DNA of 64,000 nt from Candidatus Levyibacteriota bacterium (GCA_016199085.1 JACQHJ010000003.1:38676-102675), one strand, 5' to 3'; shown: positions 1-45,417, counted from the first letter of the stretch. The notes: generated from the sequence alone by a model not told the origin. Made by a program: numbers and translations.

Positions 1-689
1 AAGGATATATTCTAACCCTTATGGCTCTTATCGGAACGACAATTACGCCCTGGGGACAGTTTTTTATTCAAGGCTACGTTGTGGATAAAAAGCTTACCAA
101 AGACGATTTAAAGATTGAAAGAGGAGACGTATTTTTTGGCAGCTTTATAACTAACCTGGTAGCTTTCTTTATCATTATAACTACAGCCGGTGCCTTATTT
201 GCCCATGGCATACAAATTTCTGATGCAAAAGACGCTGCCCTTGCCTTAAGACCATTCTTTGGAGAGTTTGCCACCATTCTTTTTGGCTTTGGGCTTTTAA
301 ATGCATCGCTTTTTGGAGCGGCAATTGTTCCTATCAGCACGTCTTATGTTATAACAGAAGCTTTCGGTATGGAATCAGGACTAAACTACAGCTTTAAACA
401 AGCTCCTGAGTTTTACGGACTTTTTGCAATATCCTTGGTTTTAGGCGGACTTTTTGTAATCTTGCCATTCTTCCCGCTTCTGACAATCTTGGTTGTCTCC
501 CAAGCTATTAATGCGGTTTTACTTATTCCTATTTTTATATTCCTCTATTTGCTTTCAAATGACAAAAAAATCTTGGGTGAATACGCAAGCAATAAGGTTA
601 TGAATATAATAGTACTTCTAGCCTTAATGGCTATTTCCGCAACCGCTCTTATCTTTGTTGCAACAACTATTTTTCCAAACATCTTCTAG
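1..689 (+). CDS. Nramp-family divalent metal transporter (MntH-like), 5'-truncated by the window edge; C-terminal TM6-TM11 portion
   Basis: The reading frame is open from the window start. The segment ALIGTTITPWGQFFIQ aligns to the Nramp TM6 signature region (xIGATVMPHNLYLHS), and the remainder is polytopic and hydrophobic. Confidence 0.55.
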   Translation, partial: GYILTLMALIGTTITPWGQFFIQGYVVDKKLTKDDLKIERGDVFFGSFITNLVAFFIIITTAGALFAHGIQISDAKDAALALRPFFGEFATILFGFGLLNASLFGAAIVPISTSYVITEAFGMESGLNYSFKQAPEFYGLFAISLVLGGLFVILPFFPLLTILVVSQAINAVLLIPIFIFLYLLSNDKKILGEYASNKVMNIIVLLALMAISATALIFVATTIFPNIF

Positions 690-2995
690 AGGAGAAACAT
701 TCGAAGGGTATTTAGCCTAATCTTAAAAGGCACACCGGAAGCAAAAAGTTCTGCAATATACTGTCTTTTTCTAATAACTCTTAAGCTGCTGTATGCAGCA
801 ATTACTGCAACTAAAAGCAGAAATAACATTTGTTCTCTGGTTTGTCCTGCAGTAACTTTATCAAAGTTTTTAGAACCTAAAACCTCCGGTGGGTTTTGAG
901 TATTTGTAGAAAGAGTTGCCAGAGTAGTTTTACCAAAGATCTTAAAATTACTTTGAGCTTGTCCTGAAACCATGTGACCATCTGGGCCAACGTTTCCCTC
1001 TGCGAGTGCTACTGCAAAATATTCGCCCGGGAGCGCATTCTTGGAAAGCACTAAGCCTGTTGAAAGCTTTACAGATCTTCCGCCTGGTATGTCACCAATT
1101 TCAAACAAACCTCCTCCCATATTGACTCCGTCTTTAACTAAGAATAGCTTTAGTTTTGTTCCATAAACCTTTCCAGTTCCAAAGTTTTTTATTTTTACAA
1201 AAAATGTTACAGTATCTCCCGGATACACATATTCTCCTACGTTATTTGCTTGCTCAACGGAAAGTAATCCTCCCTCTTCCTGCTTTTGATCACCTTCGTT
1301 ATTTTCACCATCATTTTTACTTGTTAATTGCTCAGTTGTTTGTTCTTCTTCACTCTCTTTATTCAAGGCATCAAACTCTGCTTTTCCCCCAATATCTCCG
1401 GTCCAATCACCAAAAATATTTAAAAAACCAAAAAAACCTACCGAGTTTATAAAATTGGCATTTACAAAATTAATAAGTGAAACAGCGCTGAATGCATTCC
1501 CTGTATTTATATTTCCGTTTCCATTAATAGTGTTTGACCCACTGTTTGCAAGAGAGGTAACGTTATTTTCAACATAGGCACTGTTATAGATGCTTAAATC
1601 TCCGACACACGTTGAGCACCCACCAGATCCAGCAGGTAGAAAACCTCCTAAGGAGAAGAACATTAGACTTGAACCTCCAAGCTGGGCTGCTAGTCCGTTC
1701 CAGCCTATAAAGTTTCCAATCCAATTTCCCAAAAGATTGATAAACAATCCATATATACTTGTGTTGACAAAATTGGCATTAATTAAATTGAGGTTATTGA
1801 CAATAGAAGCAGCATCTCCGCTAACAATACTTCCATTACCATTAATTGTGTTTTCCCCGCTGTTTGCAGCTGAGTCAACGTTATTTACAACAGTGGCGCT
1901 ATTTGTTGCAACCAAAGACATCCCGCAATCACTGCAAGAAGCAGGTGTAAAATCAGGCAAGATTATGTTGCCGTTAAGCTTTCCGAAAACATTTATGGAA
2001 ACAATATGGATTACAGAATTTACAACCGTAAAGTTAACTTTGTTTAAAAGAGAAACTATGGAATATGCATCACCGCTGTTAATGATTGCCTCAACGCCTG
2101 ATACTCCACCGTTTATCGTGTTTCCTCCTGTATTTGCATAGGAAACTACATTGTTGGAAACAAAAGCATAGTTTTGTAGATTTGTAAAAGAAACGTTTAT
2201 TATTTCATCATCAGGGTGTTGTTGAATCATTTGCGATGCAACTTGAAACGGATCAGAAAGGTTTAAGTTTCCGCTTTCATCCACAAAAATATTTATTGTT
2301 TGATAGACAACTTGGGAATTAACAGAGTTTGTGTTAACAGAATTGTCTACTACTGTTTCAGAAAGTGCATCCCCGCTGTCAATTTCTCCACCACCTGCAT
2401 TTTCTACAGGACAAGAGTTATTGTTGTCATCAACTAGAGGCGTTGCCGAAGGGGTTGCAATCTTATTCTCTCCAGTATTACTGTCTGAATTAATATCGTT
2501 TTCTACATCTCCTTCATTGGCAAGACTTATGGAGTTAGAATTTGAATTATCATTGTTATTACTATTCGAGTTTTCTGTTTGATTATCTGTACTTTCCAGT
2601 TCTGCAGACTCCGTAGCTTGTTCCTCTTGGGGTGTGGGATCAGGAGTTGGGGAAACTTCCTCAGTTGTTGACTGCTCGGTTGGTGATTGTTCATCTGTTG
2701 CATCTTGCGTAGAATCATCTGTTGAATCTGTATTTTCCTCTGGAACAGGAGTTGGATTAATAGTATTATCCCCTGTATCAGATGTTGTTTGTACATCATT
2801 TTCAACTGTACCATCGTTAGTTTCTGTTGTTGCAGAAGTTTCAGAAGTTGGTGTTTCTTCTGTTACAGTTGGCTGTGGGTCCGGTGGTGTTTCATCTGCA
2901 AATACGACAGCAGGTATAACGCTTTGATATAGCATCAAAAATACTATTAAAAGTATTGCCAAACATTTTTTAAATTTTTCTATTTTCCCTGTCAT
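686..2995 (-). CDS. Large secreted repeat-containing surface protein (769 aa). It has an N-terminal signal peptide, a T/S/E/D-rich low-complexity region, three or more N/S/G-rich repeats (consensus V.NNV.S.ANSG.NTINGNG...SG.A.S.V.L...VN.NF), a CSTCVG motif, a DUF11/CARDB-like beta domain and a C-terminal hydrophobic anchor followed by basic residues
   Basis: The translation shows a signal-peptide-like N-terminus, internal repeats visible by eye, and a C-terminal LFLLLVAVIAAY TM segment followed by RKRQ. A sortase gene lies nearby. Confidence 0.6.
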   Translation of the reverse strand: MTGKIEKFKKCLAILLIVFLMLYQSVIPAVVFADETPPDPQPTVTEETPTSETSATTETNDGTVENDVQTTSDTGDNTINPTPVPEENTDSTDDSTQDATDEQSPTEQSTTEEVSPTPDPTPQEEQATESAELESTDNQTENSNSNNNDNSNSNSISLANEGDVENDINSDSNTGENKIATPSATPLVDDNNNSCPVENAGGGEIDSGDALSETVVDNSVNTNSVNSQVVYQTINIFVDESGNLNLSDPFQVASQMIQQHPDDEIINVSFTNLQNYAFVSNNVVSYANTGGNTINGGVSGVEAIINSGDAYSIVSLLNKVNFTVVNSVIHIVSINVFGKLNGNIILPDFTPASCSDCGMSLVATNSATVVNNVDSAANSGENTINGNGSIVSGDAASIVNNLNLINANFVNTSIYGLFINLLGNWIGNFIGWNGLAAQLGGSSLMFFSLGGFLPAGSGGCSTCVGDLSIYNSAYVENNVTSLANSGSNTINGNGNINTGNAFSAVSLINFVNANFINSVGFFGFLNIFGDWTGDIGGKAEFDALNKESEEEQTTEQLTSKNDGENNEGDQKQEEGGLLSVEQANNVGEYVYPGDTVTFFVKIKNFGTGKVYGTKLKLFLVKDGVNMGGGLFEIGDIPGGRSVKLSTGLVLSKNALPGEYFAVALAEGNVGPDGHMVSGQAQSNFKIFGKTTLATLSTNTQNPPEVLGSKNFDKVTAGQTREQMLFLLLVAVIAAYSSLRVIRKRQYIAELFASGVPFKIRLNTLRMFLL

Positions 2996-3096
2996 ATTTT
3001 TTACCTTTCATTTTTCCTTTATTTTTATTTCCTTTCCTCTGTCCAGGGGGAGAGCCCTAAAGTTTGTTGCCCTCCCCAAGGACAAAAAGAAATACT

Positions 3097-3588
3097 TTAG
3101 TTGGGACCAACCTGGTTGTAGTTGACTATACTGTCAACGACTGACACAGAGCTTGCTACTCCAGTTTTTGTACCCTGAAGTAGAACTAAACCTCCAGCGT
3201 TAAGGTTCCCACCTGTGTTTGCATTGGTGTGAACATGGTTGTAAACAAATCCGACATTTCTCTGTTCAATGTCCCCATTTGAAACTCCCAAGTTTACGGC
3301 ACTACCCGCACATCCACAAGTTACTAAATTTGTATTTAGTTGTGTTGAAACTAGTGATGCAGATGATGCGCTTCCGCTATTGATTCCTTGAACACCCGCT
3401 GCGAGAGCGAAGTTAGCGTTTCTTCCGCTGTTTGCACTGGTGTGAACACTGTTTACCACACCTCCAAAGTTGGATTGTTCAATGTCTCCATTTCCAACTC
3501 CAACATTGACTGTTAAAGCTAAGGCAGGAACTGCAGATCCAAATAGTAAAGCTGCTGTTGCTCCTGCTACTGCTAATCTTTTAAACAT
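3097..3588 (-). CDS. Small secreted protein with two copies of the same ANSG-type repeat seen in the 769-aa protein
   Basis: Signal peptide MFKRLAVAGATAALLFGSAVPALA. The repeats VVNSVHTSANSGRN... and VYNHVHTNANTGGN... resemble those in ORF 686..2995. Confidence 0.55.
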   Translation of the reverse strand: MFKRLAVAGATAALLFGSAVPALALTVNVGVGNGDIEQSNFGGVVNSVHTSANSGRNANFALAAGVQGINSGSASSASLVSTQLNTNLVTCGCAGSAVNLGVSNGDIEQRNVGFVYNHVHTNANTGGNLNAGGLVLLQGTKTGVASSVSVVDSIVNYNQVGPN

Positions 3589-3895
3589 TTATATTCACCT
3601 CCTTTCATTTGGGATTATCAATCATTAAATTTAGAGATTGATTGCAACCTGAGGAAAAATTTGAAGAAAATAATTTATCCATAACCTGCCTACGCATCCT
3701 ATAACTTTTTTGAACATTATATGTTACAAAGATTTTTAAACCTTTTTTTATTGATAAGCTAAGGTTTTTAATCATTAATACAAACAAAAAAGGCACCTTT
3801 AATTAATCTTTATTAATTAAGGCGCCTCCGTTTACGGTCAGCGAATATCTATTTTTATAATAATTTCACAAAATTTGTCAAGATATCAATTTAAT

Positions 3896-4063
3896 TTACT
3901 TGGCATTATTAGGCTTCTTTATGTTTTTTTCTGTAATTTGGGTTACTTTAAAATCCTGAATAAAAATTTCTACGCTTCCCCAACCCTTAACGCTTTGGAT
4001 AGAAGATAAAACCTCTTGTTTTAGTTTATCCGATAAGTTCTTTGTGGAATATTGATTAGCCAT
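3896..4063 (-). CDS. Small DUF2292/YezD-like protein (55 aa); not present in the supplied ORF track because it is under 60 aa
   Basis: Manual translation gives MANQYSTKNLSDKLKQEVLSSIQSVKGWGSVEIFIQDFKVTQITEKNIKKPNNAK. The G.GSVEI.IQD.KV.QI segment is the core of the YezD family. Confidence 0.35.
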   Translation of the reverse strand: MANQYSTKNLSDKLKQEVLSSIQSVKGWGSVEIFIQDFKVTQITEKNIKKPNNAK

Positions 4064-4251
4064 AAAAAAAATCCGCTTAGGGCAGATTCGATTGAAATAT
4101 AAACCTTTTCGATAGGTTTGTCAAGGATAACAATGCTGTAAAATAAAACCAACTCTCTTGAATTCTAATTGAGAGTTGGTTTTAAGAATTGCAATTACAG
4201 GATATTTCCTGAATCTTACGGTAAGACATCTATTTGATTTAGCCCTATATT

Positions 4252-4755
4252 TTAATGAGAAAAATATGCACCATACCCATTAGGTGTCGCATTGGCAAAC
4301 CAGAAATGTCCAGGACCCAAGCTTGGATCCATACCTTGATCCATTAATACTGCAAATTGTCCCCAAATGCAGTACCCACCATTTGGTAATGGTGTGTAAT
4401 CTGCTCCGCAAGAACCAACCCAAACAATTTTATAGTGCCAGATGGAACCAGATCCACCCTTTTTACCATTCCACTCATTGTCAGTCCAAGCGTTATAAGG
4501 TGGATTGCTCCAGTTTTCATCATTTCCCCTATCCCATTCGGCGTTCCATTTCATTACAAGTTTATCAGGGGAATAGATTCCCACGCAATTTGCTGCTTGA
4601 CCACCTGCTAGACACCAGCTTGAACCTGTTCCGTTAAAAATTCTGGCTGTATCATTATAACCATATTGGTCAAAACCACCTGCTGCAAAAGCGGACGAAG
4701 CAAAAAGTAAAATTGCAATAGACAAGATTCCAAATAGAGAAAGTTTCTTAAACAT
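4252..4755 (-). CDS. Secreted Trp-rich hypothetical protein with signal peptide
   Basis: N-terminal MFKKLSLFGILSIAILLFASSAFA. The protein is W/G/N-rich, and I recognised no family. Confidence 0.45.
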   Translation of the reverse strand: MFKKLSLFGILSIAILLFASSAFAAGGFDQYGYNDTARIFNGTGSSWCLAGGQAANCVGIYSPDKLVMKWNAEWDRGNDENWSNPPYNAWTDNEWNGKKGGSGSIWHYKIVWVGSCGADYTPLPNGGYCIWGQFAVLMDQGMDPSLGPGHFWFANATPNGYGAYFSH

Positions 4756-4774
4756 TTATTTCACCTCCTTCCAT

Positions 4775-5182
4775 TTATAAATTATTAAATATTCTTTTTA
4801 TAAGATTACTTAAAGTTTCAATAAAACTTTGAATAAAAGATTTCTTGGATAAATTTTCTTTTTGATCATCAACATCAGGCGTAGGAGTTGCTGAATGTGT
4901 AGCAGATTTTGTTGGAGTTGGCTTAACATTAGAAGAATTATCGGAATTAGACTCAACTTTTAATTCGTAAGTTCCGGGACTATCTGCATCCAAGACTTTC
5001 TTCTCCCCATTTGCCTCCACTTCTATATGAGTTTGTACGCTTCCATTTCCCTGAATATTTGTTTCAACTTTAGAATATGAAGAAGCATCACCAGTTTGGA
5101 TATACTGAGAAAAAACCCCAGGTGTAACTAAGAGAAAGAGTAATGAAAAGAAAAGTGTGGTTATTAACGCCCGCCTTTTCAT
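4775..5182 (-). CDS. Secreted hypothetical protein with signal peptide
   Basis: Signal-peptide-like N-terminus. It sits inside the sortase locus. Confidence 0.4.
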   Translation of the reverse strand: MKRRALITTLFFSLLFLLVTPGVFSQYIQTGDASSYSKVETNIQGNGSVQTHIEVEANGEKKVLDADSPGTYELKVESNSDNSSNVKPTPTKSATHSATPTPDVDDQKENLSKKSFIQSFIETLSNLIKRIFNNL

Positions 5183-5221
5183 ATGTTACTTTTTACTCCA
5201 ATATCAAATTTTTGTCAAATT

Positions 5222-5824
5222 TTAGCCTGAAGGGACTGCTGTTACAATTAATCTTTTTTCATCATAAAAACCACTACAGGTATATAGAGTCAGGGTCTCA
5301 TCTTTGGTAGGCTTAATAACTTCAATATTATTTGGATAAACTGCTGTTATTTTATTTACTTTATACCTAAACCATTTATCTTTTGTAAACACATAGATTG
5401 TGTCTCCGAGTTTTACATCTTTTAAGTTTAAAAATAAACCTTCCCTTGCATGCGCAAAAATAACGGTGTTTGACTTATTCCTTGGATTTCCGCTTCCTAA
5501 TCCATAAGAGGCTGTAGTTTCAGAAAGTTCCCAATATCCCTTAACTACTTTTGAGGGAGTTACTTTTAAGTCAATATCTGCCTTTGGGATAAGAATTCTC
5601 ACGGGAATATTTTTGGTTTCTTTTGATTCTAAAAGCTTTTCATTTATAACAATTGGGCTTTTTTCTAAGTTTTTTGAAATTGGAAGTTTATAAGTTAAAA
5701 CAATAAGTGAGGAAAGGATCAGTAAAAGACCCACTAGTTTATATAACAATGGGTGTGAAAAAATATTTTTCTTTGCCTTTTGAAGTTTTTTCAAAAAGGA
5801 GAATCTTTTCTTTGCCTTAGGCAT
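5222..5824 (-). CDS. Sortase family transpeptidase
   Basis: An N-terminal membrane anchor is followed by the catalytic His context IFAHA, the TLxTC motif (TLTLYTCSG) and a downstream conserved Arg (KRLIVTA). Confidence 0.85.
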   Translation of the reverse strand: MPKAKKRFSFLKKLQKAKKNIFSHPLLYKLVGLLLILSSLIVLTYKLPISKNLEKSPIVINEKLLESKETKNIPVRILIPKADIDLKVTPSKVVKGYWELSETTASYGLGSGNPRNKSNTVIFAHAREGLFLNLKDVKLGDTIYVFTKDKWFRYKVNKITAVYPNNIEVIKPTKDETLTLYTCSGFYDEKRLIVTAVPSG

Positions 5825-6284
5825 GTTTTTTGAAAAGTTTAAGACCTAAAATGCTTAAGGAAAGTGCTGCCAGAAGTTGTCCAAATTCAATAAGCATATT
5901 ATTACCGGATCCTGCTGCTGAAAGCCCAAGTACCGCTTGCGTAGGTCCTGATGGAGCACTTGCTCCTCCGTCTGATCTTCCATCGCCTGGTCCTCCACCA
6001 TTTCCACCTCCACCTGGAGTTGTAGTGGGAGTAGGGGTTGGTGCTCCTGTTGTTGGAGTTGGTGTAGGAGTTTCTTGTCCCGGAGTAGGAGTGACTGACG
6101 GCTGTGGTGTGGGAGTACAATCGCAATCTTTTATATTTGTATTTAGCTGGGTCTCTACAACCGTTGTGCTTGTCGCATCTCCTGTAGTTGTTTGCTGATT
6201 CCCTTGGGCAAAAACATCATGGGAAATAAAGGTGAATAAGGAAAGAGCAAAAACTAATATAAATATTTGTGATAAATTCTTCAT
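5817..6284 (-). CDS. Putative sortase substrate: a secreted Pro/Thr-rich protein with a C-terminal hydrophobic segment and a basic tail (…LSAAGSGNNMLIEFGQLLAALSLSILGLKLFKKHA)
   Basis: The likely true start is MKNLSQIFILVFALSLFTFISHDVFA (ATG at 6284). A PT-rich linker is followed by a C-terminal TM and KKHA. The gene overlaps the sortase gene by 8 nt. No canonical LPXTG is present. Confidence 0.55.
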   Translation of the reverse strand: MKNLSQIFILVFALSLFTFISHDVFAQGNQQTTTGDATSTTVVETQLNTNIKDCDCTPTPQPSVTPTPGQETPTPTPTTGAPTPTPTTTPGGGGNGGGPGDGRSDGGASAPSGPTQAVLGLSAAGSGNNMLIEFGQLLAALSLSILGLKLFKKHA

Positions 6285-6330
6285 TTTTAGATTGAGGCAG
6301 TTGAGGCAGTAAGTTTGGCAATTATATGAC

Positions 6331-7479
6331 TTATAAACTAGCTTTGTCAACTGCTAATTTATTAACGTTTATTCCAACGGCTTGTTTCACATTTTTATAC
6401 CCATCTTTTTTTAACAAACCTATCAGTTCCGAGTTAATAAGTGCCGCAGCAGCCGGTCCTTCAAAAATTAATCCTGTAATAAATTGCACAAGAGATGCTC
6501 CCAGTTTTATTTTGTGATATGCGTCTTGCCCGTTAAATACTCCACCGCAGCCAATGATAATTAATTTATCTTTGTAGTTTTTATATGCAAGTTCAATAAG
6601 ACGATTTGAGTCTTCCCAGGTCGGCTTTCCACTGAAATTTCCCACAGGATATTTCGCAGTTTCATTTTTGTCCAAAGTTTTATTATTTCTGTTTTTCTGA
6701 AGGTTTCCAAAAATTACACCATCCATTTTGTTTTTGGAAATAACGTCAAGCAAAGACAGCGCTTCTTTGTCGTTTTTATCAATCGGCATTTTGACAAAAA
6801 TTGGTTTTTTAATATTTAAAGCTTTAATCTTTGTTAAAAGCTCGTCAAGTTTATCAGGATCATAAAAAGTAACCTTTGTATTTAGGTTTGGGCAACTGAT
6901 ATTTAATTCGTAATATTTTGTTTTTAAATCGAATTCTTCGGCTTTTTTAAATGCCGTAACAATATCTTCTACCGCGCTTTCCTGAGTAAACTTTCCCGTA
7001 TTTGTTTGCCCAATGCTAATACCGATTGGAATTTGGAAGTTATAATTTTTAAGCTTATTGCCTACTGCATCAATTCCGTTATTTTTAAATCCTTTGTTAA
7101 CCATTAAGGATTTTGATTTCAAAAGCCTCGCAAGCCTTGGTTTTGGGTTTCCTTCAAAGGCATGGTTTGTAATAGTTCCAACTGTTCCAAAACCAAAACC
7201 TATTGATGGAAGAATCTGCGTAAGAGAGGCGGTATAATCAAATCCTGCAGCAAGACCTATTGGATTTTCAAAAGTTATTCCTTTTATGTTTTGCGAAAGA
7301 ATCGGAGATTTAATATTAAAAATAAAAAAAGCTAGCTTTCTGGTAAGCAGGGTTTTCCCTAAAATCTCTCCATATCTTACTAAAAGATTATGGATTAATT
7401 CGCTGTTAAATAGAAAAATTACCTTAGTTAAAAGATGTTTATAAATATAGTTATAAAACCTAAGCCAGTATTTTTTCAT
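6331..7479 (-). CDS. pyrD: Dihydroorotate dehydrogenase, membrane-anchored quinone-dependent type (class 2)
   Basis: NPIGLAAGFD, FGFGTVGTIT...GNPKPRLARL and ELNISCPN motifs, plus an N-terminal hydrophobic anchor. Confidence 0.8.
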   Translation of the reverse strand: MKKYWLRFYNYIYKHLLTKVIFLFNSELIHNLLVRYGEILGKTLLTRKLAFFIFNIKSPILSQNIKGITFENPIGLAAGFDYTASLTQILPSIGFGFGTVGTITNHAFEGNPKPRLARLLKSKSLMVNKGFKNNGIDAVGNKLKNYNFQIPIGISIGQTNTGKFTQESAVEDIVTAFKKAEEFDLKTKYYELNISCPNLNTKVTFYDPDKLDELLTKIKALNIKKPIFVKMPIDKNDKEALSLLDVISKNKMDGVIFGNLQKNRNNKTLDKNETAKYPVGNFSGKPTWEDSNRLIELAYKNYKDKLIIIGCGGVFNGQDAYHKIKLGASLVQFITGLIFEGPAAAALINSELIGLLKKDGYKNVKQAVGINVNKLAVDKASL

Positions 7480-8952: not shown

Positions 8953-9744
8953 CTATGATCCTGAAATAGCATATCTTGGATAATCAACTACATATACACC
9001 AAGTATTGCTCTTTCTCTGGCAGCATTTCCGAAAGGCAAAGTTAATGTTCTTGACTGTAAGGCACTTTTTCCATTATCTTTTGCAATTTGAGGTTGCATG
9101 GGATTAACTTGCACTTGGTCTTTATCATAAACGACAAGAGCAGGATGGATTAAAACTCTTTGTTCTGGATTAACCCTTGCTCTTGCATGAGAGGCTTTCC
9201 CGTACATTTCAGGAATAGACATTAAATTCTGGTCTGCAAGAGAGACACCGCTCCTTGTAACATCAACGACTGCTGGAGTTGGAGTGTCGGAAACCGTGGG
9301 AGAAGCAAGCCTCCAGACGGGTTTAACGTCATAAGATGGCCTGCCGTCTGATTCGGGTACTTCAATTCTTGGGCCAACAGAACAGGCAACACCCTGCAAT
9401 ACTATTTCTCTTCCTCTAAAATCTGGCTCGAGAGCTTTTAATAAGGGCGTCATTGCGGCAAACCTTGTTATCCTGTCCAGATCACGAGTTAAATTCGTCC
9501 CTTCACATGGACGACCCACTCGCAAAAAATATCTGTATCTTTCATCTGAGGGCATCTGGGCACCTACATATCTAACCCTTGAGCCCTGAATTGAAGCTAT
9601 AAATCTATCCGAAGGAGCTTGGAAATATCTTGCAAGAATTTCCCCATCAGAAACGACATGGGTATCCTTTCCTAAAAGCCTATTAAGCAAACTCTTTCTT
9701 GCAGGTCCTGTTGCTAGGCTAACACCATTTTCAGTCTTTGTCAT
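8953..9744 (-). CDS. Hypothetical protein; GC content visibly higher than its neighbours
   Basis: Long ORF of about 45% GC set in DNA of about 33% GC. I recognised no motifs. Confidence 0.4.
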   Translation of the reverse strand: MTKTENGVSLATGPARKSLLNRLLGKDTHVVSDGEILARYFQAPSDRFIASIQGSRVRYVGAQMPSDERYRYFLRVGRPCEGTNLTRDLDRITRFAAMTPLLKALEPDFRGREIVLQGVACSVGPRIEVPESDGRPSYDVKPVWRLASPTVSDTPTPAVVDVTRSGVSLADQNLMSIPEMYGKASHARARVNPEQRVLIHPALVVYDKDQVQVNPMQPQIAKDNGKSALQSRTLTLPFGNAARERAILGVYVVDYPRYAISGS

Positions 9745-10368: not shown

Positions 10369-11679
10369 TTAATTACAGGCACTTGAGGGATAATAATTGT
10401 CTGCTTTTGACCCAAACTTTTCTCCTGATCCGTTTTTGCTCATATTATTTCCACAAATCTTTCCCTGAGGCTCTGTTTCTATCTTTAATCCACCCTCTTG
10501 GTTTTGTCTGAAAGTATTGCCGTAGACGTCGTTTCCTATTCCGTAAACTACACTGTCAATCATGTGCCCCCCCAAACGTATGCCAGCGCCCCTGTTTCCA
10601 AAAGTATCGTTATATCTGAATATATTCCTGTCTCCCCTTGCGTCAAGTCCGCCCGAATCTGAATCCATCTGACCGGTGCATGAGTTATATTCGATAATAT
10701 TTTCACTTGAACCTTCTTTTATATCAACACATTCGTTGCCCTGGGTATTGATTGTATTGTGGTGAATAAAGTTTTTTGAAGATTTATCGGCATCTTTGGT
10801 TGGATTTTTTCCATCTCCCCATTGATCAGAAGAAGTACCCAGATATATTCCTTCCCCGTTTTTATTATTGCTTTCAAATTTAAAATCAAATGCACCGCAA
10901 GGACCTACTGCGTTATATGATATCTCGCTTGCCATCACATAGTATCTAAGCCTTATGCACTCTCCTCCGGCGTTTTGAATGACCATTCTTGTTATCTTAA
11001 GACCAGTAAGCGGTGTATATGCTTTTTTACCTAAGACATAAATTAATTTATCTCTGTAGTTTTTTTTATCATTTGGATCCCCTACTAAACCGTCAATCGT
11101 AAACCCCTCCAGGTAAATATTATTGTGATTTATCTCAATAACCCTGGGACCCCCAGATCCTTTTACAATTGCACCCTTTTCGCCCTTTATCGTAATTGGA
11201 GCATCTCCATTGCCATCCCTGACTGTTATAACATTTTGCATATATATCCCATTTGCAAGATTTATTACATCTGAGGGACTTGCAACCGATAGAGCCTTTT
11301 GAATTGTTTTAAAAGAAGAGTTTTTAGATGTTCCAATATTTGAGTCATTACCCGTATTTGGATCGACAAAATAACTTGTACCGACCTTTATTGTATTTGT
11401 GGGAGAATTTGTACCCGATGGATTATTTGTTGGTGTAGAAGTAGCATCTGGGCCCGTCTGAATGTCCTGGGGAATATTTTTACTTGGTTTATTATTTATC
11501 ACCGAAACTACGATTGAAATACCTAAAACAATGATAATTAAAAGTGCTAAAACTTTTATCATATTATTTGGGAATAGTTTGGATTTAACGGTAAGTTTTT
11601 TCTTACGTTTTTTAGATAACTTCTGACGGGACTTTCTTCTTGCCATATTTATTATGTAGAGTATAAACTGGGATTGCAA
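10369..11679 (-). CDS. Membrane-anchored or secreted right-handed beta-helix (pectin-lyase-fold) protein with a Pro/Thr-rich linker
   Basis: A basic N-terminus and TM are followed by a PT-rich region and repeats of the type NGIYMQNVITVRDG / ITIKGEKGAIVKG. Confidence 0.5.
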   Translation of the reverse strand: MQSQFILYIINMARRKSRQKLSKKRKKKLTVKSKLFPNNMIKVLALLIIIVLGISIVVSVINNKPSKNIPQDIQTGPDATSTPTNNPSGTNSPTNTIKVGTSYFVDPNTGNDSNIGTSKNSSFKTIQKALSVASPSDVINLANGIYMQNVITVRDGNGDAPITIKGEKGAIVKGSGGPRVIEINHNNIYLEGFTIDGLVGDPNDKKNYRDKLIYVLGKKAYTPLTGLKITRMVIQNAGGECIRLRYYVMASEISYNAVGPCGAFDFKFESNNKNGEGIYLGTSSDQWGDGKNPTKDADKSSKNFIHHNTINTQGNECVDIKEGSSENIIEYNSCTGQMDSDSGGLDARGDRNIFRYNDTFGNRGAGIRLGGHMIDSVVYGIGNDVYGNTFRQNQEGGLKIETEPQGKICGNNMSKNGSGEKFGSKADNYYPSSACN

Positions 11680-12728: not shown

Positions 12729-14999
12729 TTAGTTTGCTAAATCTACCATTCCCATCACGTCTTTTCTATTCTTATATAACTGGTTAATACCCAAAATGTT
12801 ACTGACATCTGTTTTTACTTTTGTGTAGATTGCATAAACCCTGCTTTCTCTAATCTGGTTTTGGGCAAGTTTATTGCCAAGAGCGCTGTCTTGGAAATAT
12901 ATTCCGATTCCGTTATTGGTTAACAGATTTTTACTTATTTCATTCAAATCTGATTTTACATATACTCCTACTTTATTTCTGTCAAAAGTATTATTTGTTA
13001 TTAAATTATTATTTGCTTTATCATAAAAATATATTCCGTATAAAACGCTTCCTGAAATGTTATTTTCCACTACTGTGTTTTTATTTGAGGAAACATTTGC
13101 CCTAACACCGTGTCTATTGTTCTTAACGGTATTTCCTAGGACAATGTTATTACTAGATCTCCATAGGGCAATTCCACTGGTATTTCCGGAAACAGTATTA
13201 TTTTCAATAATGTTAAAGTCAGATTTTTCATGAAGCATTATTCCGTGGGATTTATTGTCATAGGAAATATTATCTCTAATTGTGTTATACATGCAGCGTT
13301 TTGAAAAGATTATCCCGTGGGTTCCGTTATTGTGGGCAATATTTTTTTCAACCAAGAACCCGTTTGAATCATCGTGGGGATCCAAACCGTATCTTATATT
13401 GTCATAGAATTCATTACCACGCCAGGTCATTCCCGTTGCGCCGTATGTGTATGCACCGAAATAGTTGTGATGGAATTTACTGTTAATAACTTCACCCGTT
13501 AATAAAACTTTTTTTAATTTCAAACTGGACAATTTCCACGAAATTCCGTATGGAGAAACTGAAATATCTGATTTGGTTGGATATCCAAGATATGAGATGT
13601 CAGAATCGTAAACATCAAGTCTTGAATTGTCTTTTACCATAATGAAGCTTCTTCCGTCAGCCAGTTCAAAATCATAATTTGACTTACTACTATCCCATGA
13701 AGTAACCTTGACTCCATTTATGATGATATCTCCGTTTCGAGATCTTAGCATTGCAAATCCCTTACTGTTACTTTCAAGTTTTAGCCAGGTAACTTCATTT
13801 TTATCAAGTTTTAAAGTTGCACCATCTGCCAGAAAGATTGTCGCCTTGGAAATCCAGACTTTTGGAGACTGCTCTAAGAGATAATTTGCACCGCCTCTTT
13901 GGGCAATATCTGAAAGAGTAAATACTCTTCCTCTTCCGCTTACCAAAAGAGTATTGGTAGATTTATCATAAGTAACACTGGCTGCAGGGACTTCAACCTC
14001 TCTTACAAGACCAAACTCAGGAACCAGTGCAATATCTTTGCCCGGAATCGATATTATCTGCCCGTTAGAAATTGTCCTGTTTGGCGCCTTTGCCATATTG
14101 GCAAAATATAGCTGATCACTGCTTATGCCGTATTCCTGTGCAATAGCTGAAAGAGTTTTATTATCCTTTACTTCTACGCGTTTAGTTAATAAATCCTTAT
14201 TAACGGTTTGCGTTCCCAAAACAGCTGCGCTTGCAATAGTATTTGAATTTGTAATCAATGCCTGTGCCAATATCTGATCTTTCTGTGTATGCGGCATTAA
14301 ATATGTATATTGTTTATAAAGATAAACACCATAGGCTAAAAACAAAACTACCGCCGCTGTGGCAACATATGCAGGAAGAGAGTTAATAAACTTAATATGA
14401 GGAAGCCTTGATTTATCCCATCTTGTTATCCAACCCTGAGTGTTTAACGTAAAGAAAGCATAGATTTTAATAAGTCCAGTAAGAAAAGAGTAGATAACGT
14501 ATCCTGGAAGTATATAAATGTTTTTGGGATCTTTTGATAAATAAGGATGAATTTTAATGGCTCTGCTTGTAAACCACCAGACAAAAATAACTGCGGCTGC
14601 TATCCAAATCCCAAGATACAAAGATACAAAAAAATAAATTGGACTTAGTATTACTACAAATGACTGGAGGAATTTATCTATTTGGAAAAATAAAAGTGCG
14701 GGATGTTTCAGTGGCCACCCATTAAAAATTGCTCCAAGATCCGCTCTCAAACCGTTTCTTGTCCATCTTAGTCTTTGTTTAAGATAAGCTCTTAAACTTT
14801 CCATCCCCGGCGTATAGACGTGTGAATTACTTTGATATGCAACCTTAAAACCTGCTTGTAAAACTAAATAGGTAAGTCTTTTATCATCGCCTGATATAAC
14901 AGGTCTTCCCAAAAACTTCTCATTAACTAATTTTTCAAGCATTGGGGTAATAATTTCTCTTATAAAAAGCTGTTCTTCCTGAAAGACAGACAAGTGCAT
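12729..14999 (-). CDS. C-terminal portion of a processive family-2 glycosyltransferase (chitin/cellulose/hyaluronan-synthase-like). It carries the SGDDKRLT and QRLRW motifs and TM helices, and is fused to a LysM domain and a C-terminal parallel beta-helix repeat domain
   Basis: GDDKRLT and QRLRWTRN (the QxxRW motif), a LysM segment (LSAIAQEYGISSDQLYFAN...ISNGQIISIPGKD), and NosD-like beta-helix repeats. It is contiguous with ORF 14935..15627 through a +1 frameshift. Confidence 0.75.
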   Translation of the reverse strand: MHLSVFQEEQLFIREIITPMLEKLVNEKFLGRPVISGDDKRLTYLVLQAGFKVAYQSNSHVYTPGMESLRAYLKQRLRWTRNGLRADLGAIFNGWPLKHPALLFFQIDKFLQSFVVILSPIYFFVSLYLGIWIAAAVIFVWWFTSRAIKIHPYLSKDPKNIYILPGYVIYSFLTGLIKIYAFFTLNTQGWITRWDKSRLPHIKFINSLPAYVATAAVVLFLAYGVYLYKQYTYLMPHTQKDQILAQALITNSNTIASAAVLGTQTVNKDLLTKRVEVKDNKTLSAIAQEYGISSDQLYFANMAKAPNRTISNGQIISIPGKDIALVPEFGLVREVEVPAASVTYDKSTNTLLVSGRGRVFTLSDIAQRGGANYLLEQSPKVWISKATIFLADGATLKLDKNEVTWLKLESNSKGFAMLRSRNGDIIINGVKVTSWDSSKSNYDFELADGRSFIMVKDNSRLDVYDSDISYLGYPTKSDISVSPYGISWKLSSLKLKKVLLTGEVINSKFHHNYFGAYTYGATGMTWRGNEFYDNIRYGLDPHDDSNGFLVEKNIAHNNGTHGIIFSKRCMYNTIRDNISYDNKSHGIMLHEKSDFNIIENNTVSGNTSGIALWRSSNNIVLGNTVKNNRHGVRANVSSNKNTVVENNISGSVLYGIYFYDKANNNLITNNTFDRNKVGVYVKSDLNEISKNLLTNNGIGIYFQDSALGNKLAQNQIRESRVYAIYTKVKTDVSNILGINQLYKNRKDVMGMVDLAN

Positions 15000-15627
15000 C
15001 TCCGCAAGCAGCTAGAAACGGGTATTCATGTTTATATCGAAGATCGAGTTGGACATCAAAGATCTTTTGAGCAAAGGTCTTGGGATTTAAAACGCTTTGA
15101 TAAGTTGCGACTCCGGCCATCCTTCTGTCATTAAACGGAGGAAGTCCGTTTTGAAGCGTATCGGGTGACCAGATCGTGTCACTATCAACGAGCGCAACGA
15201 TTTCTGATTTTGCCCTTGCTATTCCATCAGCCAAGGCTTGTCTTTTGCCAGGAACTTTTGTAACAATCAAAACTCCCCTTTTAAAGGATTTCTTAAACTT
15301 TTCAAAAATTTGGATACAGGTTTTATCTGTATAATCAATTACCGCAATTATCTCCGAAGGCTTATTATTCCTCCAGGACTCTAAAGCTTTTGTAAATACT
15401 TTTGGATCTTCATTGTAGACCGGAGTCACTATTGAGACTTCTGCCTCATATGGCTTTGTTCTAGGTTTATAATGAAGACCTATTATTTCTTTCATCATCC
15501 AGACAGACCATCTCCAAATCCCTATTACCCCTAAAGGAACAAGAAATGAATATCTGTCCAGATACTGCTCTGACCAAAAGGCAATGTCTGATAAGAATAA
15601 TTGAAAATTAATAATAAGTGCTTCCAT
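14935..15627 (-). CDS. N-terminal portion of the same GT2 glycosyltransferase (DxD motif VDSDT), separated from the downstream part by a frameshift in an A5/T5 homopolymer at about 14965-14969
   Basis: TPVYNED...VDSDT...ACGDALVCLSGRTAFY is a typical GT2 A-domain. The two ORFs overlap by 65 nt in different frames. Confidence 0.75.
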   Translation of the reverse strand: MEALIINFQLFLSDIAFWSEQYLDRYSFLVPLGVIGIWRWSVWMMKEIIGLHYKPRTKPYEAEVSIVTPVYNEDPKVFTKALESWRNNKPSEIIAVIDYTDKTCIQIFEKFKKSFKRGVLIVTKVPGKRQALADGIARAKSEIVALVDSDTIWSPDTLQNGLPPFNDRRMAGVATYQSVLNPKTFAQKIFDVQLDLRYKHEYPFLAACGDALVCLSGRTAFYKRNYYPNA

Positions 15628-16529
15628 TATTTCTTTCTCTTTCTTTTTGTAACTTTATTATTTGTTTTAGTTTTATAAGTAAACGTACTTTGGGCAAATT
15701 TAAAATTAACATTGATATATCTATTTTTATATAAAATAATAAATGCCATAAACACGATAATGCTTAACTGGATAAAATACTTACACCAGAAACTGTCATT
15801 TGGACAAAAACCATTAAGCTTATAAAAAGCTAGGTAGACTAAAAGAGGAATCAGAACTGAATAAATTTGCTTTAGCCTAAGATTTCTTTTGGAGAGATAG
15901 AAAAAGGCCAGTAAAAGCATCATCTCTATCCCAAGAAGCTGGAGTCCCACACAGGTTGAACAATTTAAAGATTGACCCGCTGCGGCAACTAATGGAGCCG
16001 GCGGTGGAGCTTTCTCGTCATCAAATTCTTCTGTTGGGGTAGCCGATGCGCTTGCAACAGCTACTGTTTTATAGATCGATAAGTTTGGCTGTTTAGGACC
16101 AGTAGAGGTAACGCTTTTTCTGTTTGGAAATCCGGGTATTGCTGAAAGTTTGTTGGAAAATTTTCCCGGCTTGCATCCATTTTCTCCCCTAACTTTAAAG
16201 TAATATTTTACTCCGTTTTCAAGTTCCGTAACCGAATAGGTTGTGGTTTTGCCGACATTGGGATTTCCATATTCAAGATTTATTTCATCTCTTGCATAGG
16301 CTACGAGGTAATGAGTAATGGGTTCAGGCGCCGGCTGCCATGTTAAAACAACACTTCTGTCTTTTGCTTCCGCCGATATTAAAACAGGAGGGATTTCAGG
16401 CCTTTGATTTTTGCAACTTAATGCATCAGCCTTTTGTATAAAAATTGGTGCCAATAAAACCGAAAAAAGTAGTATTAATACTACCAATAACTTTTTCCCC
16501 ATAGTATAAAATTGTGACAATTGTAACAT
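15627..16529 (-). CDS. Membrane protein with a signal peptide, a fibronectin type III domain and C-terminal TM helices; shares an NCSTCVG motif with the 769-aa surface protein
   Basis: The FN3-like segment is VVLTWQPAPEPITHYLVAYAR...YYFKVRGENG. The region LVAAAGQSLNCSTCVG precedes the TM helices. Confidence 0.5.
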   Translation of the reverse strand: MLQLSQFYTMGKKLLVVLILLFSVLLAPIFIQKADALSCKNQRPEIPPVLISAEAKDRSVVLTWQPAPEPITHYLVAYARDEINLEYGNPNVGKTTTYSVTELENGVKYYFKVRGENGCKPGKFSNKLSAIPGFPNRKSVTSTGPKQPNLSIYKTVAVASASATPTEEFDDEKAPPPAPLVAAAGQSLNCSTCVGLQLLGIEMMLLLAFFYLSKRNLRLKQIYSVLIPLLVYLAFYKLNGFCPNDSFWCKYFIQLSIIVFMAFIILYKNRYINVNFKFAQSTFTYKTKTNNKVTKRKRKK

Positions 16530-19482: not shown

Positions 19483-19887
19483 TTATTTCGTAATAAAGTG
19501 TCTAAATGTTGATATTGCCCAAAGAACAAGAATGGTTACTGTAAGAAGGGTAAATGCCAATTCTGTCCCTGTTACCAAACCATAAATAATTAAAATCAAT
19601 GCTAAAAAGCCTAATACACCTGCTGCCATTACCAAAACACTTGATCCCGAGGAAAACCCAGGAGACGAAGCGCACATTAAAATGCCAAAAAACGCCAGAA
19701 GTAAGATTCCCGCCCTATAACCCGAAATTAGAGGAACATCTATTCCTTTTGTCATAGCAAAATAAAGACCAAGCGTAAGTAGCGCCAAAAGCGTTGTGGA
19801 TAAATCCTTCCACGTAAGCGACATATTTTCCCCTAACCAAAGCCCATAATAACAACCGGAAGCTAAAGACTCAGTGATAATTGTCAC
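19483..19887 (-). CDS. Membrane protein, hypothetical
   Basis: Four predicted TM segments. Confidence 0.4.
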   Translation of the reverse strand: MTIITESLASGCYYGLWLGENMSLTWKDLSTTLLALLTLGLYFAMTKGIDVPLISGYRAGILLLAFFGILMCASSPGFSSGSSVLVMAAGVLGFLALILIIYGLVTGTELAFTLLTVTILVLWAISTFRHFITK

Positions 19888-27631: not shown

Positions 27632-28420
27632 ATGGGATTTCTTCAAGAAGGAGATCCTGCCCGCTATCATCTTGCTACTACCGAAAGCGGACTTGATATT
27701 GCTGTTCACAAAAAGGCGCTACCTAAGCCTTCTGATATTGATACTAGGCAAGCCAGTAGGCTCGCTAGGTATCTAAAACTTCCTGGCGATTTAGTTCTTC
27801 CATCTGCCGATCATGAATGGGGTTTTGGTCCTGTTCTTAGACAAATAGAAAGCCCTCATCCTGATTGGGTACTTTATTCCTGCGATCTTCCCCAAGGTCA
27901 ACAAAGGAATATAGGAAAGACCGGTGTTGCACAATCGACAACTCTATCTCTTTTATTTGAATTATTGGAAAGGGAAGGAAAGGAAACTGATTCTGTGGTA
28001 CAACAACACCAAACTGTTAATGTAATGGTCAACGGGATAGGAGTTCCCGAAGGATTTGGCTTAATTGCACACTTAAATCCTCCTCTTCTTTCTTGGCTTG
28101 GCGAAAATATGTCTGATCCCGTTTCCGAAGTTATTACCGATGCAATGATAAAAAGTTTTCATAAAATGTATGGGAGTAAACCTTCGATTTATGATGCACG
28201 AGAATTTTACGTTGATTGGCAAGAATCAGGACTATTGTTTACCTCAGTTCCTAGGGCGTTTTTTAATACTGCTCGTGGAACCGTTATTCCAGGAATGGGT
28301 TATGATATGACAACAAATAACTCTGATTTTCCGCATCAACAACTCTCTTTACTAGTAGGACTTGCAAAAATTGAAGAACTTGCAACCGGAGAATATTTCA
28401 GAAAAGCTCCCCAAGCTTAA
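27632..28420 (+). CDS. Hypothetical protein; GC-richer than its neighbours
   Basis: Long ORF with no recognisable motifs and anomalous composition. Confidence 0.4.
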   Translation: MGFLQEGDPARYHLATTESGLDIAVHKKALPKPSDIDTRQASRLARYLKLPGDLVLPSADHEWGFGPVLRQIESPHPDWVLYSCDLPQGQQRNIGKTGVAQSTTLSLLFELLEREGKETDSVVQQHQTVNVMVNGIGVPEGFGLIAHLNPPLLSWLGENMSDPVSEVITDAMIKSFHKMYGSKPSIYDAREFYVDWQESGLLFTSVPRAFFNTARGTVIPGMGYDMTTNNSDFPHQQLSLLVGLAKIEELATGEYFRKAPQA

Positions 28421-38321: not shown

Positions 38322-38333
38322 ATACTATTCAAT

Positions 38334-38422
38334 CTTGCTGGCTACTTACGAAAAATGTCGAACTTCGTTTCTTAAATAGTCGCTTCGCTCCTACTATTTT
38401 AGAGCTCGGCCTCGCCTCGCTC
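38334..38422. repeat. Inverted repeat X (89 bp), a perfect reverse complement of 43622..43710; begins with the 7-bp core CTTGCTG
   Basis: Direct base-by-base comparison of the two segments. Confidence 0.9.
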
Positions 38423-39024: not shown

Positions 39025-39243
39025 ATGAAAGAAGATAGAGCACAAAGATTTAAGAGAATCGCCACATATAGAACAAACGAGGTCTTGGATAAGCTCAGGC
39101 TCTTAGGGAATCTCTCCAACAAAGCTAATTATGAATATACAGAGGACGAGGTAAACAAAATATTTTCAGCTATAGAGATTCAGTTAAGAATTGCTAAGGC
39201 TAAATTTTCTTCTTCAAAGAAAAAGAAAGAGTTTTCGCTATGA
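39025..39243 (+). CDS. Small hypothetical protein (72 aa), first gene of the four-gene operon
   Basis: The ORF from the ATG at 39025 overlaps the next gene by 4 nt (ATGA). Confidence 0.45.
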   Translation: MKEDRAQRFKRIATYRTNEVLDKLRLLGNLSNKANYEYTEDEVNKIFSAIEIQLRIAKAKFSSSKKKKEFSL

Positions 39244-39845
39244 GTAATGAAGAATTAACAAATGTTGATATCGTCTTGTACTCGCTTTATTTGCTTGGTG
39301 GTAGTAGAAGAAAGATTTTTACCGAAGATATCGCCAAAAAGTGTTTTGAATTAGCACAAGATCGTTTTTCTTGGAGAAGATATCCAGAATACCCAGATAT
39401 TGAGCCTGCAAGAAAATCTTTAATGGAAGCAAGAAACCAGAAAGACTTAATAAGCGGCAGGGCAGGAGAAGTTAAGGGTACAAAACCATCTGATGGATGG
39501 ATTTTCTCTCCTGAAGGTGTGTTCTGGATAGAAAAAAATAAATCACGTATTGAAAAAGCGCTAGGCAAAAAACAAAAACCTATCAAGAGAACAGAACTTT
39601 CCAAAAAAATTGCCGAGCTTGAATCTTCAAGCGCATTCTTAGAATTTTTGAAAGAAAAGACGTGCAACAATATCAAAGCTTATGAATTCACTGATTTTCT
39701 AAACGTTAGCCTTGATACCCCATCATCAGTAATCAAGAGTAGAATTCAAACTGTTAAGGCTCTTGCAGCATCAGAAAAAAGAGAAAAACTTCTTACATTT
39801 ATTGCGCTTTGCGAAAAAAATTTTTCCAAATTAATTAATAATTAA
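39240..39845 (+). CDS. Hypothetical protein (201 aa), second gene of the operon
   Basis: Translationally coupled to both flanking genes. Confidence 0.5.
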   Translation: MSNEELTNVDIVLYSLYLLGGSRRKIFTEDIAKKCFELAQDRFSWRRYPEYPDIEPARKSLMEARNQKDLISGRAGEVKGTKPSDGWIFSPEGVFWIEKNKSRIEKALGKKQKPIKRTELSKKIAELESSSAFLEFLKEKTCNNIKAYEFTDFLNVSLDTPSSVIKSRIQTVKALAASEKREKLLTFIALCEKNFSKLINN

Positions 39846-43553: not shown

Positions 43554-43621
43554 TTTGAGTACTTTAAAATTTTTGCGTTTTTCTCCCAAAGACGATTTGG
43601 GAACGAGTCGACAGTTTTTGA

Positions 43622-43710
43622 GCGAGGCGAGGCCGAGCTCTAAAATAGTAGGAGCGAAGCGACTATTTAAGAAACGAAGTTCGACATTTTTCGTAAGTAG
43701 CCAGCAAGCT
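43622..43710. repeat. Inverted repeat X' (reverse complement of 38334..38422)
   Basis: Direct comparison. Confidence 0.9.
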
Positions 43711-43809
43711 AGAATAATTAAACCTACGAGGACCTAAACCCTCCGCCGGAAAACTTTCAGAAAGAACGGCAAATCCGGCCTTTTTGAAATCAGCAGACAG
43801 TCGTCGAAA
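43704..43809. repeat. Inverted repeat Y' (reverse complement of 45245..45349; 93 bp perfect plus an extension with 2 mismatches). It abuts and overlaps X' at the shared core CAGCAAG
   Basis: Direct comparison. Confidence 0.9.
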
Positions 43810-43849
43810 GAAAAAGAAGAGAAAAACGCAAAAATTTAAGAATAAGAAC

Positions 43850-45406: not shown

Positions 45407-45417
45407 CAGATCCGACA
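45347..45417 (-). tRNA. tRNA-Gln (anticodon CUG), 71 nt, CCA not encoded
   Basis: Manual cloverleaf: acceptor UGUCGGA/UCCGACA (U1:A72), D-stem UGCU/GGCA with loop AAUGGUA, anticodon stem CCAGA/UCUGG with loop CUCUGAA, T-stem CUUGG/CCAAG with loop UUCGAAU, and discriminator G. Confidence 0.8.

Follow-up and report, generated by a model that had tools for sequence, protein, structure and literature searches.

A candidate dedicated sortase-substrate pair in a surface-protein gene cluster of the Microgenomates

Dedicated sortase-target pairs have been defined in silico, for example the TIGR03784 "class GN/marine" sortase with its single adjacent target. We analyzed a 64,000-nucleotide (64-kb) stretch of DNA from a Candidatus Levyibacteriota bacterium (GCA_016199085.1, JACQHJ010000003.1:38676-102675; hereafter the window), which belongs to a Microgenomates genome (Candidatus Levybacteria) within the Candidate Phyla Radiation (CPR) and has a G+C content of ~35%. 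It contains a sortase gene that overlaps the gene of a secreted, proline/threonine (PT)-rich protein. Our reading, to which we assign a probability of about 0.65, is that the two form a dedicated sortase-substrate pair of the Microgenomates, in which the enzyme would anchor a stalk protein within a conserved surface-protein gene cluster. As in the TIGR03784 pairs, one sortase gene is coupled to one target with a variant signal, and the coupling is visible from comparative genomics; unlike in those pairs, the enzyme scores 31 bits against the TIGR03784 cutoff of 158, and lineage (CPR), motif, and cargo are all different.

The C terminus of the PT-rich protein also resembles the LPXTG signals (TIGR01167) handled by class A housekeeping sortases, in its order of motif, helix, and basic tail and in the PT-rich, wall-spanning type of spacer upstream. 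The enzyme shares with class A sortases an N-terminal anchor and a sequence with no evident C-terminal transmembrane (TM) helix, a lid not having been looked for. The signal differs from LPXTG in that Ser replaces Pro, an invariant VLG prefix is present, G comes one residue later (T-S-G), and the TIGR01167 model misses the tail. A further comparison is offered by Streptomyces, where the sortase-anchored long chaplins ChpA to ChpC (class E sortases SrtE1 and SrtE2, LAXTG) hold fibers of short chaplins (PMC5148588). Our locus is similar in having a non-proline second position (Ser here, Ala in LAXTG), the tripartite layout, and a paralogous secreted family with one common module, only some members of which carry a sortase signal. 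It differs in that the class E hidden Markov model (HMM) gives the enzyme 42.6 bits against a cutoff of 160, the motif is VLGLSxTSG instead of LAXTG, the module bears no relation to the chaplin domain, and enzyme and single substrate are encoded by an overlapping gene pair. Neither chaplins nor curlin repeats were found to be related in sequence by Pfam, and the likeness would be one of genetic architecture alone.

The CPR, or Patescibacteria, represent a large fraction of the diversity of bacteria, and their cell envelope is almost unknown biochemically. A sortase family, fam000526, has been reported from over half of the CPR genomes and as nearly ubiquitous in Microgenomates (Meheust et al. 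2019, PMC6744442); it is probably the same enzyme family as the window sortase. The passages of PMC6744442 that deal with fam000526 describe no substrate, sorting motif, or gene cluster, and in our literature search, no substrate or motif of a CPR sortase turned up.

The sortase and the signal of its neighbor

Judged by its sequence, the 200-aa product of positions 5222-5824 (minus strand, as for all genes of the locus) is a membrane-anchored sortase with a His-Cys-Arg triad. It matches Pfam Sortase (PF04203) with an E value of 7.6e-22 and 77.8 bits (cutoff, 26.6) and TIGR01076 with 51 bits (cutoff, 39.35), and it contains TLYTC, which bears out the initial annotation of a sortase with a TLxTC motif. 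H125, C183 (in TLYTC), and R191 are invariant among 28 homologues. A basic N-terminal tail and one TM helix precede the catalytic domain, with which the sequence ends. The sequence search returned 732 homologues, the best being a 100% identical protein labeled "MAG: sortase [Candidatus Levybacteria bacterium]." Class assignment was not reached, since the enzyme fell under every cutoff tried among the NCBIfam class models: in addition to the class E and class GN scores given above, it obtained 52 bits for class C (cutoff, 160; the best score), 50 for SrtD (140), 46 for class D (165), and 26 for class F (166). Against PDB chains, the family profile reached ~45 bits at best, to class C-like and class A chains alike. 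Classification by HMM, which had been proposed at the outset, therefore placed the enzyme in the sortase superfamily and in no known class; it belongs to a large, tight clade lying below all class A to F model cutoffs.

The neighboring gene (5817-6284) encodes a 155-aa protein and shares exactly 8 nt, ATGCCTAA, with the sortase gene, an overlap that had already been reported. The gene had been drawn from a TTG at 6350. This TTG is part of the −35 hexamer of a perfect σ70-like promoter (TTGACA-18 nt-TATAAT, 6321-6350, minus strand; 12/12 matches) located over the stop codon of pyrD (6331-7479), and so the reading frame almost certainly begins instead at the ATG at 6284 (MKNLSQIF...), 22 codons inside the maximal open reading frame (ORF). 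The length of the orthologues, 142 to 155 aa, agrees with this choice. The promoter is the probable one of a substrate-sortase operon.

From the N terminus, the protein is composed of a signal peptide, half a repeat module (TTGDATSTTVVETQLNTNIKDCDC; aa 47-76, the second half of the module), a PT-rich linker, a G-rich/GDGRSDGG spacer, and a 38-aa C-terminal sorting domain (5820-5933) that reads VLGLSAAGSGNN, then MLIEFGQLLAALSLSILGL, then KLFKKHA. As first noted, this C terminus is tripartite without an LPXTG motif, and its motif, hydrophobic stretch, and basic C-terminal tail on a Sec-secreted protein follow the general LPXTG-like layout. The PT-rich protein is very probably the substrate of the adjacent sortase, an assignment that the following comparisons across loci strongly support.

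For a forward test, 22 loci were chosen by sortase similarity from GTDB species-representative genomes; those that proved to carry the signal are labeled Levybacteria, Gottesmanbacteria, Amesbacteria, Patescibacteria group, or plain "bacterium," and several of them are metagenome-assembled genomes labeled as uncultured Gammaproteobacteria. Exactly one ORF with V[LMIQ]G[LI][SA] in its last 60 residues was found in 20 of the 22 loci and in the window, and in all 20 of these loci, as in the window, that ORF abuts or overlaps the start of the sortase gene. The sortase is at least 40% identical in all 20 signal-positive loci and only ~30% identical in the two loci without the signal. For a reverse test, metagenomes were searched with a profile of five close signals that held no sortase information. 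A sortase gene lay immediately downstream in 27 of 28 loci, and the remaining contig stops 195 nt past the signal gene.

Over 41 unique signals, the residue counts were V41 L37 G41 L40 S38 x T35 S32 G32, followed by [E/D]; A or Q precedes VLGLS, and after the motif come ~20 hydrophobic residues, among which a Q and a G are conserved, and finally FKKNA. The distance from the V to the C terminus is 36 to 43 aa. In the LPXTG register, the consensus reads L-S-x-T-S(-G), with Ser replacing Pro. Peptides representing the signal would be QAVLGLSTTSGEEN and QAVLGLSTTSGEENY; the window's own version is QAVLGLSAAGSGNN, with VLGLSAAGSG as its copy of the motif, in which LSAAGSG is a degenerate version of the consensus. 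The LPXTG_anchor model TIGR01167 did not match the tails of the window or of one related locus (L010) at an E value of ≤10, and none of the other curated sorting-domain models matched these tails; as a positive control, the LPATG tail of the Gottesmanbacteria locus L013 scored 21.4 bits against the TIGR01167 cutoff of 15.9. A canonical LPXTG-type signal is absent from all real secreted proteins of the window. A 46-aa profile of the signal gave only four short matches in a database of 5.8 billion proteins, for which the domain is too short. The initial description of a lineage-specific sortase locus with an uncharacterized specificity is supported.

The cargo ahead of the signal differs between loci and may be a half module, a full module, an FN3 domain, or Cys-rich or other domains; the substrates of Gottesmanbacteria and Amesbacteria carry a complete module. 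In almost all loci, a PT-rich and then a G-rich/DGRSDGRS spacer, resembling wall-spanning regions, lies ahead of the signal.

Some genomes appear, from their gene content, to hold two sortase-signal systems. In L013 (181-2075), L014 (5625-7267), and L016 (575-1958), which comprise Gottesmanbacteria, Amesbacteria, and one Levybacteria locus, a second, divergent sortase abuts genes whose products end in IATGD, LSSKTG, and FAPTG, and a further L013 gene just upstream ends in LPATG. The different signals found beside the second sortase indicate that signal and enzyme covary, which supports cognate pairing. In the window, the PT-rich protein is the probable single target of its sortase.

Module proteins and gene order around the pair

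In the direction of transcription, the locus runs from pyrD through the substrate and sortase genes to the gene of a 769-aa protein. Downstream of the sortase lie genes for a "tiny" secreted protein of 135 aa (4775-5182; signal peptide, IQTGDA...VETNIQGNG segment, PT linker, and amphipathic C-terminal helix), a Cys/Trp/Asn-rich secreted protein of 167 aa (4252-4755), a small cytoplasmic protein of 55 aa of the DUF2292/YezD family (3896-4063), a "small" secreted protein of 163 aa (3097-3588), and the "big" protein of 769 aa (686-2995).

An N/S/G-rich repeat common to the 769-aa and 163-aa proteins had been noted. At the DNA level, it is reflected in a 43-nt unit, of which the 769-aa gene has three copies and the 163-aa gene two, and at the protein level, it was recovered by module HMMs that we built from homologues of the 769-aa protein. 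The ANSG/ANTG module is ~75 aa long, follows the pattern ANTGxN...TGDA...NxNxxN...CxC, and has no match among Pfam or NCBIfam models; curli-like repeats were considered and set aside, as neither Pfam Curlin_rpt nor any other model matched. In the 769-aa protein, the HMMs detected one partial and four full modules (the full ones at 1382-2542; aa 152-246, 271-347, 354-433, and 460-538), with the CxxC motifs CSDC and CSTC ahead of modules 3 and 4; in the 163-aa protein, they detected two modules, separated by CGC, after the signal peptide (E~1e-6). The idea of paralogous repeat proteins around the sortase is supported.

The 769-aa protein begins with a signal peptide and an acidic T/P/E-rich region; its modules are followed by a putative immunoglobulin-like β-sandwich domain (CARDB/DUF11-like; 926-1273, ~aa 575-690), a VLG tripeptide (875-883, aa 705-707) ~15 residues ahead of a TM helix, and a cytoplasmic tail. 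Its family comprises at least 1,112 representatives at 50% identity with an E value of ≤1e-3. An AlphaFold model based on 75 homologues had a mean confidence (pLDDT) of 77, exceeding 90 over modules 2 to 4 and the next domain. The predicted module fold consists of three long strands (17 to 18, 11, and 9 to 10 residues) plus short strands; beyond the modules, the model predicts a helix, the immunoglobulin-like sandwich, the TM helix, and two short tail helices. Among the PDB matches listed for this model, none covers the module region. For the 163-aa protein, only four homologues were found, and the AlphaFold model on that shallow alignment had a pLDDT of 27.

The initial annotation overlooked both the 55-aa gene and the kinship of the 135-aa protein to a conserved family that in many loci is encoded directly downstream of the sortase gene. 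The 55-aa ORF, below the 60-aa limit of the ORF list, matches DUF2292 (PF10055) with 23.8 bits (cutoff, 22) and has no signal peptide. By tblastn, the gene was present in 17 sources (the window and 16 related loci), and where it was mapped, the "small" module gene comes just after it, also in the differently ordered Gottesmanbacteria and Amesbacteria loci. The 167-aa protein had no family match and no counterpart seen at that position in the related loci inspected, a formal search not having been made; its gene looks like a variable insert.

The run substrate, sortase, tiny, DUF2292, small, and big recurs in Levybacteria loci (the window, L001, L002, L007 to L009, L023, L028, L032, L042, L043, and L049), not every one of which is complete. 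In Gottesmanbacteria and Amesbacteria, the order is DUF2292, a small-like gene with four modules, a big-like gene, substrate, and sortase.

Proposed anchoring mechanism and alternatives

We propose that the substrate, once exported by the Sec pathway, would be held in the membrane by its hydrophobic segment and basic tail, that the sortase would cleave within L-S-x-T|S-G, in the register of LPXT|G, and that the PT/G-rich stalk protein would then be transferred to a cell wall amine such as lipid II. More speculatively, and by analogy with the chaplins, the anchored half or full module might tether or nucleate a surface layer or fiber of the 163-aa and 769-aa paralogues. Several points weigh against a dedicated pair embedded in a module-protein cluster. 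Three consensus residues are replaced in the window signal (T by A, S by G, and G by S), and the E and Q inside its hydrophobic segment leave it only moderately hydrophobic. The count of one signal per locus covers the fetched loci and the 64-kb window rather than a genome-wide census, and both the cleavage site and the acceptor are putative. With regard to the cluster, the half-module match of the substrate is marginal (E~2e-3), the 135-aa protein does not match the module HMMs significantly (E values of 0.2 to 0.6), and about one-third of the loci have the substrate-sortase pair without module genes beside it. The latter loci imply that the pair may function independently of the module proteins.

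A common motif, [LV][STA]AG[QS], had been suggested from the C termini of the window proteins; it is not conserved in orthologues of either the 769-aa protein or the FN3 protein described below. Taken literally, it matches only the 769-aa protein (1 match against 0.24 expected), and across 75 aligned members of the 769-aa family, the columns of VTAGQ hold gaps or show no conservation; where the window has AAAGQS, the FN3 orthologues show ITGEEK or KSTNEE. The element that these proteins do share is VLG. By comparison with the consensus, the SAAG of the substrate is a degenerate copy of part of VLGLSxTSG. As a separate observation, [VI]LG-x-[S/T]-T, often repeated, is strongly enriched shortly before the C-terminal membrane anchors of large Microgenomates surface proteins (loci L001 to L020; 875-883 in the window).

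The sortase could, then, be a housekeeping enzyme that reads a general VLG-x-[S/T]-T motif on many substrates, including the 769-aa protein, the adjacent gene being merely its best match; this amounts to the initial suggestion with its motif corrected. In favor of this, 24 of 32 secreted single-anchor proteins of these loci have [VI]LG within the 60 aa ahead of their C-terminal TM helix, compared to 6.8% of background windows (Fisher P = 1e-20); 61 to 63 of the 75 members of the 769-aa family keep the VLG, 9 residues ahead of VTAGQ and followed by [A/T/S][S/T][T]; and many substrates bear a tandem VLGASTGP-xVLGLSxTSG. However, the FAPTG and LSSKTG signals of the second-sortase genes and the LPATG signal of L013 are likewise preceded by VLG, which is therefore not specific to the window sortase; VLG appears, across these proteins, to be a general feature of the surface proteins of this lineage and is probably not the specificity determinant of the enzyme. 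Its distance to the TM helix ranges from 6 to 45 aa, and the features kept specifically beside the sortase are L3, T6, S7, G8, and the TM sequence. Moreover, the 769-aa family has a conserved helical cytoplasmic tail of ~30 aa past the TM helix, which suggests a retained C terminus, more reminiscent of a permanent membrane anchor than of a sorting signal. We thus regard a broadly acting enzyme as unlikely. The reverse case, that the C-terminal domain is a membrane anchor or interaction helix and the PT-rich protein is a partner or regulator of a sortase acting on other proteins, would fit the unusual conservation of the TM segment (Q, G, and FFKKNA), as in helix-helix interaction, and the fact that substrate cleavage is so far deduced from sequence. 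It accords poorly with a conserved extracytoplasmic motif that matches the LPXTG register and keeps a fixed distance from the C terminus, with the preservation of the signal across completely different cargo domains, and with an arrangement that is that of known dedicated sortase-target pairs; nor does the window offer an alternative LPXTG-type substrate. We consider it quite improbable.

Pilus-like appendages have been reported on CPR cells, the best NCBIfam and PDB scores of the enzyme are to class C/fimbrial sortases (52 and 45 bits), and several secreted paralogues cluster with the sortase gene. These points would suit a sortase-assembled pilus, a surface or pilus-like system having been suggested in the initial annotation. 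In such a pilus, class C-like polymerization would join the substrate, the module proteins, or both through isopeptide bonds. Yet the scores are far under the class C cutoff of 160, with class A about equal; a single sortase is present, and the signal is borne by just one protein per locus. Lysine is entirely missing from the mature L001 substrate, the only Lys of the window 163-aa protein is not conserved, and the enzyme has no evident C-terminal TM helix, the class C lid motif not having been looked for. With a single signal-bearing protein and no conserved Lys in the substrate or the 163-aa family, a pilus is disfavored and, of the explanations weighed here, the least probable.

A dedicated sortase-substrate pair, the reading we prefer, may be extended to a bolder proposal, which we hold to be possible but doubtful: VLGLSxTSG and its helix would be an uncatalogued sorting domain with its own Microgenomates/CPR sortase class, and the anchored protein would serve, attached to the wall, as base or nucleator for a new kind of surface fiber or layer built from the β-rich N/S/G modules. 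If so, the fiber or layer could contribute to the surface layers or appendages that cryo-electron microscopy has shown on CPR cells. A coupled enzyme and signal would make the CPR envelope experimentally approachable with a short peptide and a 140-residue soluble domain, and it would add to the sortase toolbox a specificity with a non-proline P3 and T-S-G. The anchored protein would be a target for reagents, its processed C terminus could be mined in metaproteomes, and the module proteins point to a large family of surface proteins that are built from repeats and lack annotation.

The FN3 protein and other features of the window

A gene at 15627-16529 (minus strand), only loosely linked to the sortase locus, encodes a protein that matches Pfam fn3 (44.1 bits; cutoff, 25) and, having a three-TM C-terminal domain, is a three-TM membrane protein; it showed no match to the module HMMs. 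An exact CSTCVG common to this protein and the 769-aa protein had been pointed out. The hexamer is indeed present in both, but its exact match is not significant: 24 exact 6-mers are shared between window genes, against 11 on average and 22 at most in shuffled sequences. As a sign of homology between the two proteins, CSTCVG was rejected, given a BLASTP E value of 0.18 and shared 6-mers that are not unusual in the window. Within each family, a CxxC is kept, at the CSTCVG site in five aligned orthologues of the 769-aa protein (e.g., CTSCVGD, CDLCP, CASCSAN, and CDLCTGD) and at the start of TM1, on the outer face, in three aligned FN3-three-TM sequences. The latter family also has a conserved Cys pair in the loop after TM1, NGFCPNDSFWCKYF, and its Cys motifs might constitute a membrane thiol-disulfide element. 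Relatives are encoded in L002 (1161-2081), L004 (6198-7046), and L008 (12110-13102), beside the sortase cluster in the latter two.

Between the sortase cluster and the FN3 gene, two genes at 10369-11679 and 12729-15627 (both minus strand) encode right-handed β-helix proteins, with DUF1565 and with NosD/Beta_helix plus LysM and a glycosyltransferase-2 part, respectively, which suggests that the cluster sits in a broader cell-surface or polysaccharide neighborhood. Farther along, a large serine recombinase with Resolvase, Recombinase, and Zn-ribbon domains (43784-45406, plus strand) is flanked by inverted repeats of 119 nt with 93% complementarity (43702-45349), next to a tRNA gene (45347-45417); a 97-nt inverted repeat (98%) pairs 38326-38422 with 43620-43716. 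This region is probably an integrative or invertible element. Three ORFs of ~200 to 260 aa, at 8953-9744 (minus strand), 27632-28420 (plus strand), and 39240-39845 (plus strand), have no Pfam match and, by eye, seem to differ in amino acid composition from their neighbors. They may be paralogous or mobile sequences; PARKSL is common to the first and third ORFs, and WLGENMS is common to the second ORF and one at 19483-19887.

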